Source of the DNA: an uncultured bacterium
GTDB lineage: Bacteria > Lernaellota > Lernaellaia > Lernaellales > Lernaellaceae
Direction: 5' to 3'
Assembly (NCBI GenBank): GCA_964534375.1
Contig: CAZHPN010000077.1
Span: 1 to 25,547, forward strand
Length of the DNA stretch: 25,547 nucleotides
Made by a program: the position numbers and the translations under genes
The notes under the pieces: generated by a model
Told to the model about the DNA's origin: nothing
Databases searched by the model: none
The model's input: the letters and a program-made list of their open reading frames with translations, nothing else
Shown here: piece after piece, positions 4,759-11,979 of the stretch
Layout of the letters: the number at the start of each line of letters is the position of its first letter
Position numbering within the stretch: the first letter of the stretch is position 1

Positions 4759-5886
4759 ATGAAAAAGACTCGTTGGTTTATCGCCATTCTGTTCGCCATC
4801 GCGACGTTTTCGGTGTACGCGGCGGCCGGGCCCGGCATCGACTATGGCCCGTGGCTGACCGGCGTGACGCAACATTCGGTTACGGTGAAGTGGGGTTCGT
4901 CGCCATCCGTCGGCAAGGTGGAATACGGCCCGACCGCGGCGCTGGGCCGCGAGGCCGAGGCGGTGTACGCCGGCGGCGTTCATCAGGCGGAGCTGACCTC
5001 GCTGGCCGCCGGCGCGCGCTGCTACTACCGCGTGACCGGCGGCGGCGAGACCGGCAAGCTGCAATCCTTCCTGACCGCGCCGGAACCCACCGCGCCGTTT
5101 CATTTCGGCGTCCTCAGCGACACCCAGGGCGCCCCGAGCGCCTACGCGGCGGTCATCGAGCCGCTCAAGGCGACCGACCCGGCTTTCGTGCTGCACAACG
5201 GCGACTTGGTCGACTACCCCTTTGTCGATCTCGAATGGCGGCATTTTTGGGGCGTGACGGATCGGCTCGCCGGCCAGGCGCCCTATTTCCCCGTACGCGG
5301 CAATCACGACGGGATGCTCGGCGGCAAACAGCATTTCGCTTTGTACTGGTCCAATCCGCGGAACAACAGCGTCATTTCGCGCTCCGTCTATAGCTTTCAA
5401 TACGGCAATACGTACTTCATCGCGTTGGACATCAACGAACCGTATGCCGCCGGTTCGCCGCAACACCAGTGGCTCGCCAGGCAACTCGCGTACGCCAAAA
5501 TCCGGCCCGACGTAAAACATTGCATCGTGTACGCGCACTTTCCGCCGTATTCCTGCTCCGCGCACGGCGCCGACGCCAACGTCCTGGAGTTCCGCGCGGC
5601 CGTGGTCCCGCTGTTCGAGAAATACGACATCGATCTTTCCCTGGCGGGGCACGATCACGGCTATCAGCGCTCGGTCGTGAACGGCATTACGTACGTGGTC
5701 GCCGGCTGCGCGAGCTCGCGCACCTACAGTTGCAACCCCCAATCGTGGACGTTGAAGTGCGAAAAGACGACCAACTTCGCCAACATCGCGATCGACGGCG
5801 AGGCCATGCGCGTCGAGGCCCGCCGGCCGGATCGCAGCCTGATCGATTCGTTCACCATCACCCACGATTTCCACGGACGAAGTTGA
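4759..5886 (+). CDS. Secreted metallophosphoesterase, purple-acid-phosphatase-like, with FN3-like N-terminal domain
   Basis: Signal peptide, then HQAELTSL..GARCYYRV (FN3-like). Metal-binding motifs SDTQ, GDLVD, GNHD, AHFPPY, GHDH. Confidence 0.88.
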   Translation: MKKTRWFIAILFAIATFSVYAAAGPGIDYGPWLTGVTQHSVTVKWGSSPSVGKVEYGPTAALGREAEAVYAGGVHQAELTSLAAGARCYYRVTGGGETGKLQSFLTAPEPTAPFHFGVLSDTQGAPSAYAAVIEPLKATDPAFVLHNGDLVDYPFVDLEWRHFWGVTDRLAGQAPYFPVRGNHDGMLGGKQHFALYWSNPRNNSVISRSVYSFQYGNTYFIALDINEPYAAGSPQHQWLARQLAYAKIRPDVKHCIVYAHFPPYSCSAHGADANVLEFRAAVVPLFEKYDIDLSLAGHDHGYQRSVVNGITYVVAGCASSRTYSCNPQSWTLKCEKTTNFANIAIDGEAMRVEARRPDRSLIDSFTITHDFHGRS

Positions 5887-5929
5887 CGGCGGCGACGACG
5901 ATCATCAACCGGCGATGAGGGGAGGGGCC

Positions 5930-6727
5930 TTATTCTTTTACGCCGATCGTGCGGCTGATGTTATTCGCGCGCTTGCCGACTTCTTTTTCAATAAAGGGCC
6001 GAAACAAGGGAATGTGCCGCGCCACACGCGCCGCAAGCGGGATTTTTATGAAAGGCTGCTGCGTGATTTTTTTTGTTTTGTTCGAGATACGCCCAGTTGA
6101 CGCCAGTTCCTCTCCCGCCCGGCTATAGGCGGCCAAAACGGTTTTCGCCTTATCGTGTTCTTGGCGTTCGGTCGCTTCCAACATTGCCATCCATGCTGCC
6201 GCGCCTCGACGCTCCAAATGCGCCAACTGCGGCGCGTCCATGAATCGTCCGAAAATTCGGAAGTACTCCCCGGTGTTGCGAACCGTCATATTCTCCACAT
6301 TATCGCACACCACGATAGAAACAAACGGCTTGCCGGCGATTGCCCGATCCGTGTCGTGGAAAAATAAACCCGATTTCGTTAATAATATTTTTTCAACAGG
6401 CGCAAGTGAATGAATTCTCTCCAGGAAACGTTTCAAAAGGCTCGATGCGCCAAACAGATAGACCGGCGACGCATAAATCAGAATATCGGCGTCCCGCATC
6501 TTGTGGAAGACCTCTGCGGCGTCGTCCTTGCCGTCGAAAATACATTGATAAGCTTTTGTTCTCTGACAATGATTGCACGCCCGGCAACTGTCAATATTCA
6601 GTTGGGCAAGATGCACTGCCTCCCAGACTCCGCCTGCTTTCTCGACGCCCGCGCCCATGCTCTGAAGAATTTTGCCGGTAGCGCCCCTGTCGCCCCGAAG
6701 ACTTCCATTGAGCGCCAAAACTTTCAT
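5930..6727 (-). CDS. Flavodoxin-family iron-sulfur flavoprotein / NADPH-dependent FMN reductase
   Basis: MKVLALNGSLR..GAT, CRACNHC...C cluster motif, ADILIYASPVY, LKRFLER. Confidence 0.88.
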   Translation of the reverse strand: MKVLALNGSLRGDRGATGKILQSMGAGVEKAGGVWEAVHLAQLNIDSCRACNHCQRTKAYQCIFDGKDDAAEVFHKMRDADILIYASPVYLFGASSLLKRFLERIHSLAPVEKILLTKSGLFFHDTDRAIAGKPFVSIVVCDNVENMTVRNTGEYFRIFGRFMDAPQLAHLERRGAAAWMAMLEATERQEHDKAKTVLAAYSRAGEELASTGRISNKTKKITQQPFIKIPLAARVARHIPLFRPFIEKEVGKRANNISRTIGVKE

Positions 6728-8182: not shown

Positions 8183-8224
8183 GGCGCGGTTCCCCTTCCC
8201 CTCTCTTGCCGTGACGAGGCGAAA

Positions 8225-8244
8225 ATAGTTTTGTACAAAACCAT
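8225..8244. promoter_or_regulatory. Palindromic operator, likely bound by the MarR protein of this operon
   Basis: ATAGTTTTGTACAAAACCAT has a perfect 14-bp palindromic core (8228-8241) and lies directly downstream of the minus-strand -10 box. Confidence 0.7.
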
Positions 8245-8277: not shown

Positions 8278-8372
8278 GCCGCGCCGGCACGAGGACAAAC
8301 ACTCGTTGCTCACATAACGGGCACAAGAAATAACCATGCATGTTTGCTGTTGGCGAAACTAATGGCGCGGGC

Positions 8373-8401
8373 TTTACACTCTCGATTCGAGAGTTTATAC
8401 T
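8373..8401 (+). promoter_or_regulatory. Sigma70-type promoter with inverted-repeat operator in the spacer; probably leaderless transcript
   Basis: TTTACA (8373-8378), 17-nt spacer, TATACT (8396-8401). ACTCTCGA-T-TCGAGAGT at 8378-8394. The ATG is 6 nt after the -10 box and has no SD. Confidence 0.75.
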
Positions 8402-8407
8402 TCGCAC

Positions 8408-8680
8408 ATGAATTTGGATCAGACAAATATTGAAAAGGCGTTGACGACCCTGGGCGCGGTTCTCGCAAGCAGAGGATTTACGTATGAGCTTGTCGTCGTC
8501 GGCGGCAGTGCCTTGATGATGCTCGGCGTCATCTCGCGGCCGACGAAAGACATTGACGTAGTGGCGTTGGTTCAGGCGGCCGCCTGGGCGGAAAGCCATG
8601 ACCCCTCGCCGGCTTTCCATTCCTTGGCAAAACAGGCGTTGGCCGCCTTCGGCATCGGGGAAGACAATGATCGGGCTTAG
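8408..8680 (+). pseudogene. DUF6036/AbiEii-like nucleotidyltransferase, apparently with an in-frame internal deletion
   Basis: The NTase signature ELVVVGGSAL...RPTKDIDVVALV is joined directly to a C-terminal-type segment, AAAWAESHDPSPAF. The product is only 90 aa and lacks the central part I recall for this family. Confidence 0.65.
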
Positions 8681-9617
8681 CGAACGGCTTCTTGAACAGG
8701 CCCTCGATCTGCTCTGGAGCCTTTGGACTGAACTCGGGGTTTCGGGATGGGGCAAGGCTTATCCGGATTGCGCTGTCGATCCTGAACCGCTCATTCTTTT
8801 TACGGCCGCGCTCGGCGATGCGGACCCACGCTTGCGGGATGAGGCAACGGACTGGTGCATCAAATACGGCTGCTATATCTCGGGCACTCGCCTGCGGAAT
8901 CTGCTGAACAAAGAAAGTGAATCGGCGCAAAAGAAGTTCGGAGAATTCGCGGCAACGGTAGCGGCTCATTCGAAGCAACGCTGGCCGGGTGCAACCAGTG
9001 CGCGAAAATACCGACCGACCGGGCGTTCTCAGATTGACGACTTCTCCAAGCCCTCGATGATTGTGCTCCGTCTGCGGGCGTTGCTGGGAGTCAGTGCGAG
9101 AGCCGATGCCGTGAAGGTGTTTCTATCGCGCCCCGGCGATTCATTTTCGGCCTCGGATATCGCCGGCGAAACGAACTTCACCAAGCGGCACGTCGCGACG
9201 GCGTTGGAGAGCCTGAGGATGGGGGGCCTATTGGAGTCGTTGCCGCTTCGGAACCAAGTGCAGCACCAACTACGGTCGGCAGAGGAAGTGCTTGTCGCAG
9301 TTGGTTCCGTGCCGCGTGCTTTTCCGAATTGGGTTGCCGTATTTCATTGTCTCGGGACGCTCGTGGAAATGGCGCGAAGAGTCGAAAAGCTGAATGAGGT
9401 TGTTCGCGAAGTCGAGGTAAAATCCGCGCTGAACAAACTTGCGATTGAAATACGCGCGGCCCGATTGCCGGCGCCGCCAAACGGTGTCTCAGGGGCCGCC
9501 TTTTGGCCGGCATTCACGGCCTGGGTCTTGGGAATTGCCGACAGGGCGAAAAACGCGGGAACAAATCGGGGTTGGCTCGTTGCGACGCAGCCTGTTCCTG
9601 CGCCAAGTCTTCGATAA
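8667..9617 (+). CDS. Conserved hypothetical protein with internal winged HTH; putative antitoxin/regulator partner
   Basis: The ATG at 8667 overlaps the upstream ORF by 14 nt. N-terminal LWSLWTELGVSG..DPEPLILFT..DPRLRDEATDWC. HTH: FSASDIAGETNFTKRHVATALESLRMGGLL. Confidence 0.7.
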   Translation: MIGLSERLLEQALDLLWSLWTELGVSGWGKAYPDCAVDPEPLILFTAALGDADPRLRDEATDWCIKYGCYISGTRLRNLLNKESESAQKKFGEFAATVAAHSKQRWPGATSARKYRPTGRSQIDDFSKPSMIVLRLRALLGVSARADAVKVFLSRPGDSFSASDIAGETNFTKRHVATALESLRMGGLLESLPLRNQVQHQLRSAEEVLVAVGSVPRAFPNWVAVFHCLGTLVEMARRVEKLNEVVREVEVKSALNKLAIEIRAARLPAPPNGVSGAAFWPAFTAWVLGIADRAKNAGTNRGWLVATQPVPAPSLR

Positions 9618-9674
9618 ATAGTGGTGGATCAGAACGTTCTTCGACCGCATCGACATCGGGCCGCAGGTCCGAGA

Positions 9675-9736
9675 CAAAAATGGGAAGGGGACCAAGCGCA
9701 GGAAGCTCGCGCTTCGCACGCTGTTTCCCCTTCCCA
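9675..9736 (-). terminator. Intrinsic terminator of the tRNA operon (long hairpin plus U-tract)
   Basis: Perfect 11-bp inverted repeat TGGGAAGGGGA (9681-9691) / TCCCCTTCCCA (9726-9736), with inner AGCG/CGCT and GAAGC/GCTTC stems. Followed by TTTTTG on the minus strand. Confidence 0.7.
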
Positions 9737-9751
9737 ATCCGAGAAGGCTTG

Positions 9752-9825
9752 CGACCCCAACGGGATTCGAACCCGTGTTGCCGGCGTGAAAGGCCGGTGT
9801 CCTGACCGGGCTAGACGATGGGGTC
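9752..9825 (-). tRNA. tRNA-Glu (TTC)
   Basis: Acceptor stem GACCCCA/TGGGGTC, anticodon arm CCGGC-CTTTCAC-GCCGG, T arm with GGTTCGAATCC. CCA is not encoded. Confidence 0.96.
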
Positions 9826-9874: not shown

Positions 9875-9947
9875 TGAGTCGGCCGGGGTTCGAACCCGGG
9901 GCCTACGGATTAAAAGTCCGTTGCTCTACCGGCTGAGCTACCGACTC
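9875..9947 (-). tRNA. tRNA-Lys (TTT)
   Basis: Acceptor stem GAGTCGG/CCGACTC, D arm TAGCTCAGCCGGTAGAGC, anticodon arm ACGGA-CTTTTAA-TCCGT, T arm CCGGGTTCGAACCCCGG. CCA is not encoded. Confidence 0.96.
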
Positions 9948-9958
9948 GAAGCGGGGGG

Positions 9959-9987
9959 ATTCTAGGGATGCGGTTCTGGCTTGTCAA
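9959..9987 (-). promoter_or_regulatory. Sigma70 promoter of the tRNA-Lys/tRNA-Glu operon
   Basis: TTGACA (9987-9982), 17-nt spacer, TAGAAT (9964-9959), followed by a GC-rich discriminator CCCCCCGC. Confidence 0.85.
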
Positions 9988-10009
9988 GCAAGAGTTGCGT
10001 TCCACTTCG

Positions 10010-11692
10010 CTACCTGCGGTGAAACTCATCGTCTCCCCCGCCGCTGGCGCCGAGCGGCGTCGACGGGCGCCAAGATTGCCGCGTAAATATCCAATATCGA
10101 TCCGCTTGCGGCGACTCGTCGCGACGGATCACCTTCGCCAATTGAAACGCTTCAAGCGCGATAAAGCGCTGCAAATCGTCGTCGTCGAAATCCGCGGCCA
10201 CGGAATAATGCGCCAGGCAGTCGATGCCGCGACTTCGCCAATGCGCAACGAACGCCGGCGGCGGCGCGCGGTCCGCCCGCAAACGCGCGACAACCGGATC
10301 GGTCAGCCCTTCCAGATCGGCGAACGGCCGGTCGAGGAAATAGCCGAACGCGCCGGCGTTCTCCGAGGCGACTCGCGCGCCCACGCCGAAGCGCTCGCGG
10401 ATCCATTGCGCGGCGATGCGGTGCAGATTGTGCGCGTCGGCCTACGACAGCGCCGCGGCGCCCGTGGTCCAAGGCGTCAATTTCTCGCCCGCGCCGCCGA
10501 ATAAATCCGCGATGCGGAAGACGGGCGGCATTTGCGCATCTTTCGGGATCGCCGGCCGCCATGCCTGACCCAGCCAGAGTCCGATCGCCGCCGCCGCGGC
10601 AATGCCGATCACTGCCAGCGCTCTTGCCGTTCCGGCCGCGCGAAACGACCCCGCGACCTCGATCAGCCACAAGGCCGCGAGAACGGTCAGCGGAGCGAAC
10701 AGCCGCAGCGAAGCGTACATGTGCACCCAATCGACGCCCGTCAGGCCGGCCGTCAGCGCCCCGGCGAGGGCAAATACGCCGAATTCGTTTCTTCGCGACG
10801 CGGGGACCAATACGGCCGCCGCGCCGGCGACGCCGGCCAGCGCAACGAAGAGCGGGTCGCGCGTCAAAAAAAGCGCCAGGCAAGTGAAGCCGCGCCCGGC
10901 AATGACGGCCCAGCCGCCGCCCAGTTCGGCGTATTTCAAGAGCACCGCGCTGGAAATCAGCGATTGGAAATGAATTGCGCGCCAGAGCGTGTCCGGCGCG
11001 AAAACCACCGCGAACCCGGCGGCGACGCGGCCAAACTCACGCCCGGTCGTCCGCCACGCGGCCGGGTGGAAGAGAAATTCGAGATAAAAATAGATCGCCA
11101 TCCATAGCGGAAACTCCGGCCGCGACAGCGCGCCCACGCCGCAAATCAGGCCCGCCGCCCACCCTGCCCGGCGCCCGCCCGTTCGCCGCGCGCGATTCAA
11201 CGCGATCGCCGCCGCCGCCGCGATGAAACCGTATTGCGTCGTCTCCAAACCGTTCCAGGCGTGGCAGCGTAACAGCGGATCGAGCAACAGCAGAAACGGC
11301 ACGGCCCATGCGACGCCGCCCCCGCGCCGCGCCGCGAACCACAGCAGCAGCAACCCCGCGAGCACCGTAAAGATCAGCCCGTGCCAGACGCCGGCCAGCG
11401 GCAAATCGCCGAACCGTTTCGCCAGCGGCGCCAAAAGCATGATCTCCAGAAAATTCGAATAGCCTTCGACCGGCTCCTGGCCCGGGTTGTACGTCAGCCC
11501 GGCCCCCGCGGCGAGATTCTGCGCATAGCGAAATGACACGAATGCGTCATCGAACGGCACGGCGCGCTGCACGATGTCGCGGCACCGGAATAACCACAAA
11601 AAACAGGCGAGATAGGCGATGGCGACCACGGCGAACAAAAACCGATAAGTCCTGCGCGAAGCTCGGTTGCCGGCCGCTGGCGGAGAATCCAA
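10010..11692 (-). pseudogene. AftB-like GT-C membrane glycosyltransferase interrupted by an in-frame TAG at 10442-10444 (pseudogene, sequencing error or read-through)
   Basis: DDAFVSFRYAQNLAAGAGLTYNPGQEPVEGYSNFL, NGLET, SRPE and many TM helices. After the TAG the same frame continues IAAQWIRERF..ENAGAFGYF..DLEGLTDPVVAR. Probable TTG start at 11692 after GAAAGG. Confidence 0.72.
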
Positions 11693-11842
11693 CAGATTTG
11701 CCTTTCGTTTCCTGACCAAGAACGAATCCGCCAAGATGCTAACAAGTTGGCAGTGAGGCAACAAGACGACGAAGCGAGTGAGGTGAACCGGGAGCAAACG
11801 CGAGAATACGCCCGACAAAAGTCGATAACCGACGCCAAAACA

Positions 11843-11858
11843 AGTTTCACGTGAAACA
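11843..11858. other. parS centromere-like site
   Basis: AGTTTCACGTGAAACA, a 15/16 match to TGTTTCACGTGAAACA, in a divergent intergenic region. Confidence 0.85.
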
Positions 11859-11979
11859 ATTGCCTGGGTGCACCGGCCGCGACGCGAACATGAAATTGCC
11901 AAACAAAGCCAATTTTTCTGAGCGGCCGGAACCCCCTAATCGCCGTCCGCGTGAACCCTCGAATTTTCGGCAACGCCAA

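Follow-up and report, generated by a model that had tools for sequence, protein, structure and literature searches.

Among the described two-gene systems that couple a nucleotidyltransferase (NTase) of the polymerase-β (pol-β) superfamily to a second protein, those closest to the locus considered here are AbiE (AbiEi/AbiEii), a type IV toxin-antitoxin (TA) and abortive-infection system of Streptococcus agalactiae and Lactococcus (Dy et al., 2014, PMC3985639), and MenAT1 and MenAT3 of Mycobacterium tuberculosis (Arrowsmith et al., 2024, PMC11375011; Xu et al., 2023, PMC10435456). In the accounts of both systems, the gene for the regulator or antitoxin precedes that for the NTase (PMC3985639, PMC11375011). 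The motifs defined for the DUF1814 family comprise I/II, hG[G/S]x(~15)DhD with a family-specific Arg that is reported to be absent from other pol-β NTases, III, KLxAaxxR, and IV, +DxxD; single substitutions in motifs III or IV abolish the toxicity of AbiEii, and the abiE promoter contains paired inverted repeats bound by AbiEi (Dy et al., 2014, PMC3985639). The corresponding residues given for MenT1 are R37, T39, D41xD43, and K137, of which T39 is the phosphoacceptor that is auto-phosphorylated upon antitoxin binding (Arrowsmith et al., 2024, PMC11375011). Here we describe a module on a contig of 25,547 nt (CAZHPN010000077.1, forward strand, in its entirety; henceforth the window) from an uncultured bacterium of the family Lernaellaceae, in which the remnant of an NTase gene overlaps the gene for a 316-aa partner with a central winged helix-turn-helix (wHTH) domain. 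Sequence comparisons make it fairly probable that the window carries a disarmed copy of an AbiE/MenAT-like TA cassette with a new partner family and a reversed gene order.

The module consists of two plus-strand open reading frames (ORFs), 8408-8680 (90 aa, P0001) and 8667-9617 (316 aa, P0002), with an overlap of 14 nt, and 133 nt separate its 3' end from a tRNA-Glu gene. The G+C content of third codon positions (GC3) is 0.69 in the NTase remnant and 0.62 in the partner gene; the Fe-S and MarR genes to their left have higher values of 0.83-0.85, and a membrane-protein ORF to their right has 0.76. A preliminary description, made from the letters of the sequence alone, had pointed to the overlapping genes, to their less GC-biased codon use relative to the flanks, and to their location beside tRNA-Glu and its terminator, and each of these observations stands: the tRNA genes are convergent with the module, and a T-run hairpin, recognized by eye, lies between them. 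Its further reading of the two genes as a pair in toxin-first order is matched well beyond the window, where they are conserved neighbors with the NTase gene in front. An alignment-based search of contigs from one genome per species recovered relatives of the partner in 160 stretches and of the NTase in 242, of which the best 80 of each were kept (the two sets share some contigs); a locus search with a single protein gave none. A relative of P0001 lies directly upstream of the partner on the same strand in 66 of the 75 partner-selected loci with at least 600 nt of upstream sequence (tblastn), and NTase sequence is detected upstream by a hidden Markov model (HMM) in 70 of the 75 evaluable ones (51 intact, 19 partial). 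Reciprocally, the partner follows directly downstream on the same strand in 79/80 NTase-selected loci, the exception being L097, whose downstream ORF is not related to the partner (hhalign probability 0.1). Among 103 distinct intact pairs, the frame overlap is exactly 14 nt in 49 and falls within 8-20 nt in 75. The two genes are conserved as a unit in many phyla, the organisms recorded being mainly uncultured Actinomycetota, Chloroflexota, Dormibacterota, Myxococcota, Chlamydiota, and Verrucomicrobiota.

Intact NTases of this family are about 193 aa long and adopt a two-domain NTase fold in an AlphaFold2 (AF2) model (pLDDT 92.8); the residues G32 G33, R44, T46, D48, D50, D125, K130, and D146 are invariant across 21 full-length sequences. 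All five full-length homologs compared with Pfam exceed the gathering threshold of DUF6036 (PF19502; 26.2-35.8 bits), an NTase entry whose 164-position model is matched in part only and whose description names neither a function nor a partner. Two of the five also exceed the 22.5-bit threshold of AbiEii (PF08843; 24.6 and 29.9 bits) and three fall below it (14.2, 14.5, and 21.7 bits), while the AbiEii models of PADLOC match 5/21 NTases, weakly, at E≤0.01. A literature search found no paper naming DUF6036 in its full text, and nothing relevant on NTase toxins with leaderless transcripts or orphan antitoxins. Measured against the published motif definitions (PMC3985639), the cassette NTase resembles AbiEii in its hG[G/S]...R...DhD core with the family-specific Arg (G32 G33, R44, D48, and D50, invariant in the 21 sequences and present in the window remnant), and in having K-L-x-A-type and K/R-x-x-x-D-type motifs. 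However, motifs III and IV occur in the intact homologs as variants only, viz., F-K130-L-Y-A-A-x-D without the Arg and K142-H143-x-x-D146, and the protein further differs from AbiEii in its length of about 193 aa and in matching DUF6036 better than DUF1814. The resemblance extends to MenT1, to whose R37/T39/D41xD43 and K137, as given by Arrowsmith et al. (PMC11375011), the R44-x-T46-x-D48-x-D50 and K130 of the cassette NTase correspond; the MenT-type phosphoacceptor segment T46-x-D48-x-D50 and K130 are invariant in intact members, and K130 is deleted in the window.

The window gene retains the beginning and the end of such an NTase. P0001 exceeds the cut-offs of DUF6036 (30.9 bits; cut-off 23.6) and AbiEii (25.4 bits; cut-off 22.5), with both matches limited to its N-terminal part (DUF6036 profile positions 13-47 of 164), where the GGSA...RPTKDIDV signature is retained; the pol-β NTase signature read from the sequence in the preliminary description is thereby substantiated. 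In tblastn comparisons with the homologous loci, residues 1 to ~56 match the start of ~193-aa ORFs and residues ~45-88 their last ~40 codons. An intact 193-aa ortholog occurs at the same tRNA-Glu/tRNA-Lys site in G004, a genome from a different genus of this family, and pairwise DNA alignment resolves the window gene as G004 nt 1-165 plus 475-582, i.e., an in-frame deletion of 309 nt that takes out codons 56-158; microhomology of 2-4 nt is possible where the ends meet. In two DNA runs from different studies, one of which may be the source of the window itself, contigs span the junction 8572/8573 without differences, and we therefore read the deletion as a real allele rather than an assembly join. 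A second contig in run X1 (record 4), 348 nt long and of lower depth, has five differences over window positions 8515-8576 up to the junction and then diverges; it may derive from a co-occurring relative with an undeleted NTase. The deleted segment contains the family-invariant D125, K130, Y132, D136, H143, and D146, and the AbiEii-type motifs III and IV fall inside it. The window copy cannot be an active system, because its NTase lacks codons 56-158 with both motifs, a loss at which the preliminary description only hinted; the remnant is still in frame and still has the 14-nt overlap onto the partner gene.

The partner, in contrast to the NTase, is intact. Its 316-aa start is confirmed by the N-termini of 26 homologs, which align at M1, and it retains all 33 invariant columns of the family. 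The AF2 model (pLDDT 91.3, pTM 0.89) comprises five helices (aa 4-100), an ordered linker (101-128), the wHTH (129-212), and four C-terminal helices (222-295). Invariant charged and aromatic residues are densely placed in the N-terminal domain (W17, W20, D38, D53, R55, E59, D62, W63, C64, R75), which suggests a binding or catalytic surface. The wHTH matches the ArsR structure 2oqg at 7.5e-6, and HTH_20 is matched in 16/27 partner members; the PADLOC matches (PDC-M05A, Csa3) are confined to this domain. Outside the wHTH, the protein matches no Pfam, PADLOC, or PDB family, the fold of its helical parts having been barely tested in these comparisons; in the ESM Atlas the whole partner matches unnamed clusters only, and residues 1-128 give no usable match to named clusters. 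None of the 27 members matches the models of AbiEi/MenA3-type antitoxins (COG5340; AbiEi_1-4, E≤1), so that the central HTH and the unfamiliar N-terminal domain, which the preliminary description had set apart from canonical AbiEi, are indeed distinctive: AbiEi has an N-terminal wHTH and a C-terminal antitoxicity domain, whereas the wHTH of the cassette partner is flanked by helical regions on both sides. We found 491 homologs at E≤1e-3 among 8000 candidates scored, mostly of ~300 aa and named hypothetical or 'ArsR family', and a profile search of 1.84 billion cluster representatives (clusters at 50% identity) returned 1997, 1503, and 452 matches at E≤1e-3, 1e-10, and 1e-30, respectively. Variants of the partner include a form with a C-terminal GGDEF domain (P0238, 465 aa), very long forms with no Pfam family in their extensions (P0131, 746 aa; P0134, 1591 aa), and forms of ~390 aa, mainly from Myxococcota, with a conserved C-terminal extension of ~85 aa (P0043, P0062, P0071, P0074, P0097).

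A promoter scan over 1.9 kb returned three promoter-like sites against 0.5 ± 0.6 in shuffled sequences. Both promoter features claimed in the preliminary description are real: the TTTACA-17-TATACT promoter (Table 1) and, within its spacer, a perfect 8-bp inverted repeat with a 1-nt center, ACTCTCGA-T-TCGAGAGT (8378-8394). The repeat exceeds chance, because the 70 nt that precede the NTase start contain CTCG-N3-CGAG in 15/51 homologous loci as against 7/3838 background windows of that length. Of 113 distinct upstream regions from homologous loci, 65 have the motif TAnnnT with its end 5-8 nt ahead of the start codon (shifted controls, 7-26/113; in-gene positions, 0-10/113), while 17/113 have a Shine-Dalgarno-like leader instead of a close -10 box. 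Anchored on this motif, the 65 promoters yield the consensus CGAGaa-N-TTTACa-TtCTCG-nTT-CGAGaa-gtTAaAcT-tCTCG, an operator made of two 19-bp palindromes centered on the -35 and -10 boxes, with their centers 22 bp apart; the inner pair of its four half-sites (HS2 and HS3) is the inverted repeat of the window. The half-site words vary by locus (CGAGAA, CGAGCA, CGCGCA, and others) and are common to the four sites of one locus, identity within a locus being greater than between loci in 6/6 pairings, with 0/2000 permutations reaching the observed value. Such co-varying half-sites have the look of a specific protein-DNA code co-evolving with its regulator, and the protein reading them would be the wHTH partner. 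The promoter repeat noted in the preliminary description is in this light part of a conserved predicted operator that co-varies within each locus. The -10 box of the window ends 6 nt before the ATG, and its mRNA is therefore predicted to be leaderless, as most transcripts across the homologous loci look to be.

Comparison with G002, a genome of the same family, places the module on an insertion of ~1.47 kb, since homology to the window stops at ~8280 and restarts at the 3' end of tRNA-Glu (9751). At the empty site (L166:1318-1501), there is no module, and only 182 nt separate tRNA-Glu from the preceding MarR and Fe-S genes, whose identities to their window counterparts are 78% and 73%; the second tRNA of G002 is called by ARAGORN as tRNA-Asn(att), not tRNA-Lys. 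The module of G004 lies in an att-bounded islet of ~1.6 kb that holds the two genes only and no integrase; its ends are marked by a direct repeat of 35 nt from the 3' end of tRNA-Glu (33/35 identical; L084:820-854 and L084:2473-2507), a signature, as judged from its sequence, of site-specific integration. No left att repeat is detectable in the window, and no integrase family (Pfam, E≤1e-5) was found in nine scanned ORFs of G004 (of 24 ORFs of at least 150 aa in the 12 kb upstream) or in eight scanned ORFs flanking the module in the window. The low GC3 of the two genes also speaks for mobility, as does a patchy distribution, with the family in 1/7 same-family genomes and 1/40 relatives. Only 9/156 loci have a tRNA gene within 600 nt, so that linkage to tRNA genes is not general.

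The two genes are lost unequally. Among the 75 evaluable partner-selected loci, the NTase is intact in 51, has a large deletion or truncation in 11 and only a frameshift in six, is borderline in two, and is absent from five. Conversely, of the 77 NTase-selected loci whose NTase is intact, 70 have a full-length partner, two a broken one, one has none, and in one the partner is cut by the contig end; in the remaining 3/77 (L134, L154, L155) it is covered to profile position ~262, with C-termini not matched by the HMM. The NTase is thus largely deleted or absent beside an intact partner in 16/75 loci (24/75 with the frameshifted and borderline cases), while the partner is absent or broken beside an intact NTase in 2-3 of 76 evaluable loci (16/75 versus 2/76, Fisher p=3e-4). 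Deleted or truncated NTases beside intact partners occur in independent lineages, Acidimicrobiia and others (L039:1756-2011, L061:3720-3969, L046:551-913, L011, L017, L026), and the boundaries of the deletion in L039 (profile positions 56/160) are nearly those of the window. If the NTase is a toxin, it should often be lost, and the partner only rarely so as long as the NTase is live; the observed pattern is of this kind, and it fits a role of the NTase as toxin and of the partner as antitoxin and autorepressor.

From these observations we propose that the window holds a small islet, probably acquired horizontally at the 3' end of tRNA-Glu, that represents one copy of a self-contained two-gene cassette, in which the first gene would specify a ~193-aa DUF6036 NTase related to AbiEii/MenT and the second, translationally coupled to it, a protein of ~300 aa with a central winged helix. 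The intact NTase would be a growth-arresting toxin that, by analogy with MenT, might nucleotidylate tRNA 3' ends; the partner would neutralize it and repress the operon via the four CGAG/CTCG half-sites bracketing the -35 and -10 boxes of a promoter whose mRNA is mostly leaderless. In the window the toxin is dead, because the 309-nt deletion removed the middle of the NTase with motifs III and IV; what is left would be an orphan partner, still conserved and probably still expressed and autoregulated. Compared with AbiE as described (PMC3985639), the cassette is likewise bicistronic, joins a pol-β NTase to a wHTH protein, and has paired inverted repeats in its promoter, but its operator consists of four 6-nt half-sites around the -35 and -10 boxes, and its mRNA is predicted to be mostly leaderless. 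Several points weigh against an AbiE/MenAT-like TA cassette. The NTase gene comes first in the window, in G004, and in nearly all NTase-selected loci, unlike the order reported for AbiE and MenAT (PMC3985639, PMC11375011). The partner is without similarity to AbiEi or MenA antitoxins, MenA1 being a 7.4-kDa protein and MenA3 AbiEi-like in the published descriptions, in which the antitoxin gene of MenAT precedes that of the toxin (PMC11375011, PMC10435456). No relatives of the family were found in 72,556 plasmids and 50,697 phages (tblastn) or in IMG/VR (pattern scan). The loss counts derive from metagenome-assembled genomes and from a sampling of the best 80 loci, in which some loci are related and some frameshifts may be sequencing errors. 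Further, in L063, L066, L073, and L076, the partner occurs without an NTase between a class A penicillin-binding protein gene upstream and an Rv2525c-like glycoside-hydrolase gene downstream, and such a stand-alone clade in a conserved housekeeping context implies that the partner can have a role without the NTase. The records of these four loci bear different phylum labels. Enrichment in defense islands, raised in the preliminary description as something to look for, is also not seen: of 88 flanking ORFs at 44 loci (after removal of the duplicate loci L032 and L034), most are housekeeping genes, and only ~8 resemble TA, defense, or mobile-element genes, viz., a second DUF6036, Schlafen/AlbA_2, ResIII, Fic, two HipA, NTP_transf_5, and TrwC. 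There is no conserved third gene among these ORFs. In L020, the module is closely followed by another NTase gene of the DUF6036 family, encoded on the other strand (5189-6034, minus strand). The TA-like reading of the preliminary description accordingly survives in part: the coupled pair, the R-x-T-x-D-x-D core, the operator, and the loss pattern speak for it, and the broken window copy and the lack of defense-island enrichment against it.

The same pair might instead constitute an anti-phage abortive-infection module, in which the domains of the partner other than the wHTH would sense infection and release the NTase. AbiE is described as both a TA and an abortive-infection system (PMC3985639), the PADLOC AbiEii matches of some NTases, weak as they are, point the same way, as do the patchy, islet-like distribution and the few HipA, Fic, Schlafen/AlbA_2, ResIII, and DUF6036 neighbors; nevertheless, no PADLOC system model covers the pair, the PDC-M05A and Csa3 matches concern the wHTH only, and the largely housekeeping surroundings and the lack of relatives in the phage, plasmid, and IMG/VR collections leave this an unlikely explanation. 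We think it decidedly improbable that the locus is an ordinary regulated enzyme operon, with an NTase modifying a small molecule (e.g., an antibiotic, as ANT(2'')-Ia does) under a ligand-responsive wHTH repressor and neither protein toxic. The best structural match of the cassette NTase is the aminoglycoside nucleotidyltransferase ANT(2'')-Ia (Z 8.3, 148 residues aligned, 17% identity), which is similar in length and in its two-domain NTase architecture but shows no sequence-family match. ANT(2'')-Ia is a resistance gene of integrons and plasmids and is not known to have a coupled wHTH partner. Moreover, Pfam assigns DUF6036 and AbiEii to the cassette NTase, its R-x-T-x-D-x-D core carries the Arg that Dy et al. 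(PMC3985639) report as absent from other pol-β NTases, and neither a strict 14-nt overlap and fixed stoichiometry nor one-sided loss of the enzyme with retention of the regulator would be expected of a resistance operon, in which a repressor left on its own would serve no purpose.

A reversal of roles, in which the NTase would be an antitoxin that modifies and so silences a toxic helical partner, is suggested by the type VII MNT-HEPN systems, where, as in the cassette, the NTase gene comes first and is followed by that for a helical protein. The top Foldseek match of the partner is indeed the ROQ region of Roquin, where a wHTH lies between helical HEPN halves (E 7e-3), but we rejected this likeness: the superposition has a TM score of 0.17 and a root-mean-square deviation of 20 Å, and Roquin is not among the top 50 rows of a Foldseek-independent structure search with the partner. 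A conserved Rx4-6H motif is likewise missing from the 27 partner sequences, which have no invariant His; the positions R30/H35 vary and are K30 and C35 in the window. The cassette NTase is AbiEii/MenT-like rather than a minimal MNT, and the loss pattern is opposite to that of an NTase antitoxin, as a toxic partner should kill any cell that has lost its NTase, and yet the NTase is frequently destroyed beside an intact, conserved partner; we regard this alternative as extremely improbable. There remains the question of whether the window cassette is simply a decaying pseudogene pair without function, its partner being intact only because the deletion is recent. The dead NTase, the degenerate outer half-sites HS1 and HS4, and the undetectable left att repeat are what decay would leave. 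The partner, for its part, has no excess of lineage-specific changes (32 versus 24 in that of G004, chi2 1.14, i.e., no rate acceleration), altered 2/63 highly conserved columns against 7/63 in G004, and keeps all its invariant residues, while the remnant preserves its frame and the coupling overlap, and orphan partners recur in other lineages. In addition, two studies have metatranscriptome contigs that match 8964-9165 and 9046-9196, within the partner gene, without a difference; as DNA carry-over is possible, they hint only weakly at transcription. No RNA contig was placed on the NTase remnant or the promoter, which weighs neither way. Decay without function therefore seems to us a minor possibility beside the disarmed, still regulated cassette proposed above.

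Table 1. Coordinates of the module, its regulatory elements, and adjacent features in the window
Feature	Position	Strand	Basis and remarks
Sigma-70-type promoter	8373..8401	+	TTTACA 8373-8378, 17-nt spacer, TATACT 8396-8401; 10/12 consensus positions
Predicted operator, four half-sites	8366..8406		Consensus of 65 promoters anchored on the -10 box
HS1	8366-8371		CGCGGG, degenerate (3/6 matches)
HS2	8379-8384		CTCTCG
HS3	8388-8393		CGAGAG
HS4	8401-8406		TTCGCA, degenerate (3/6 matches)
NTase remnant, 90 aa	8408..8680	+	N-terminal 55 residues fused in frame to C-terminal 35; junction 8572/8573
Partner gene, 316 aa, intact	8667..9617	+	Homologs, AF2 model, conserved columns
Inserted islet, ~1.47 kb	8281..9750		Relative to the empty site in the same-family genome G002
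Long hairpin GGGAAGGGGA ... TCCCCTTCCC, then T-run	9675..9735	-	Read by eye; faces the 3' end of the partner gene
tRNA-Glu (UUC; ttc)	9751..9825	-	tRNA calls, Rfam; 3' end is the insertion site; same arrangement in G004
tRNA-Lys (UUU; ttt)	9875-9947	-	tRNA calls, Rfam
tRNA-Lys promoter TTGACA-17-TAGAAT	9987..9959	-	Promoter scan

The long hairpin facing the partner gene is likely the terminator of the tRNA-Lys/tRNA-Glu transcript and is missing from the terminator scan because its loop exceeds the limit of the scan; Rfam finds nothing in the region of the window besides the two tRNAs. On the left, a palindrome of the TAGTTTTGTACAAAAC type (8224-8244), conserved with G002, lies in the upstream region of the Fe-S/MarR operon and is probably the MarR operator of that operon, not related to the module. 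On the right, no convincing gene was found in 9968-10440, between tRNA-Lys and the membrane-protein ORF (10442-11902, 486 aa), and the latter has no Pfam match. The relatives G001, G002, G004, and G005 carry rubrerythrin-like genes beyond tRNA-Lys instead, and the far side of the tRNA pair in the window has therefore also been rearranged.

Work on bacterial growth control and phage defense increasingly features NTase toxins, AbiEii and MenT among them, and those that have been characterized all use AbiEi-like or very small antitoxins encoded upstream; what is new here is a MenT1-sized NTase paired with an unrelated and much larger partner. The cassette is common in uncultured Actinomycetota, Chloroflexota, Myxococcota, Chlamydiota, and others (160-242 species genomes). 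Taken together, and tentatively, DUF6036 NTases and their ~300-aa partners might form an undescribed, phylum-spanning class of TA or abortive-infection systems, relative to the published accounts cited above, which would be toxin-first and leaderless, with a four-half-site operator around the -35 and -10 boxes and an antitoxin of new architecture, i.e., a wHTH between helical domains of no known family. Such an antitoxin could neutralize its toxin via auto-phosphorylation of Thr46, as with MenA1 and MenA3, and the cassette may move as an integrase-less, att-flanked islet of ~1.6 kb at tRNA 3' ends, mobilized in trans. The system is compact, combining an operator code that co-varies, as we predict, with its regulator, predicted leaderless expression, and natural toxin-deletion alleles, and the main value of the window copy would lie in offering one such natural "disarmed" allele together with a dated insertion at a tRNA site.

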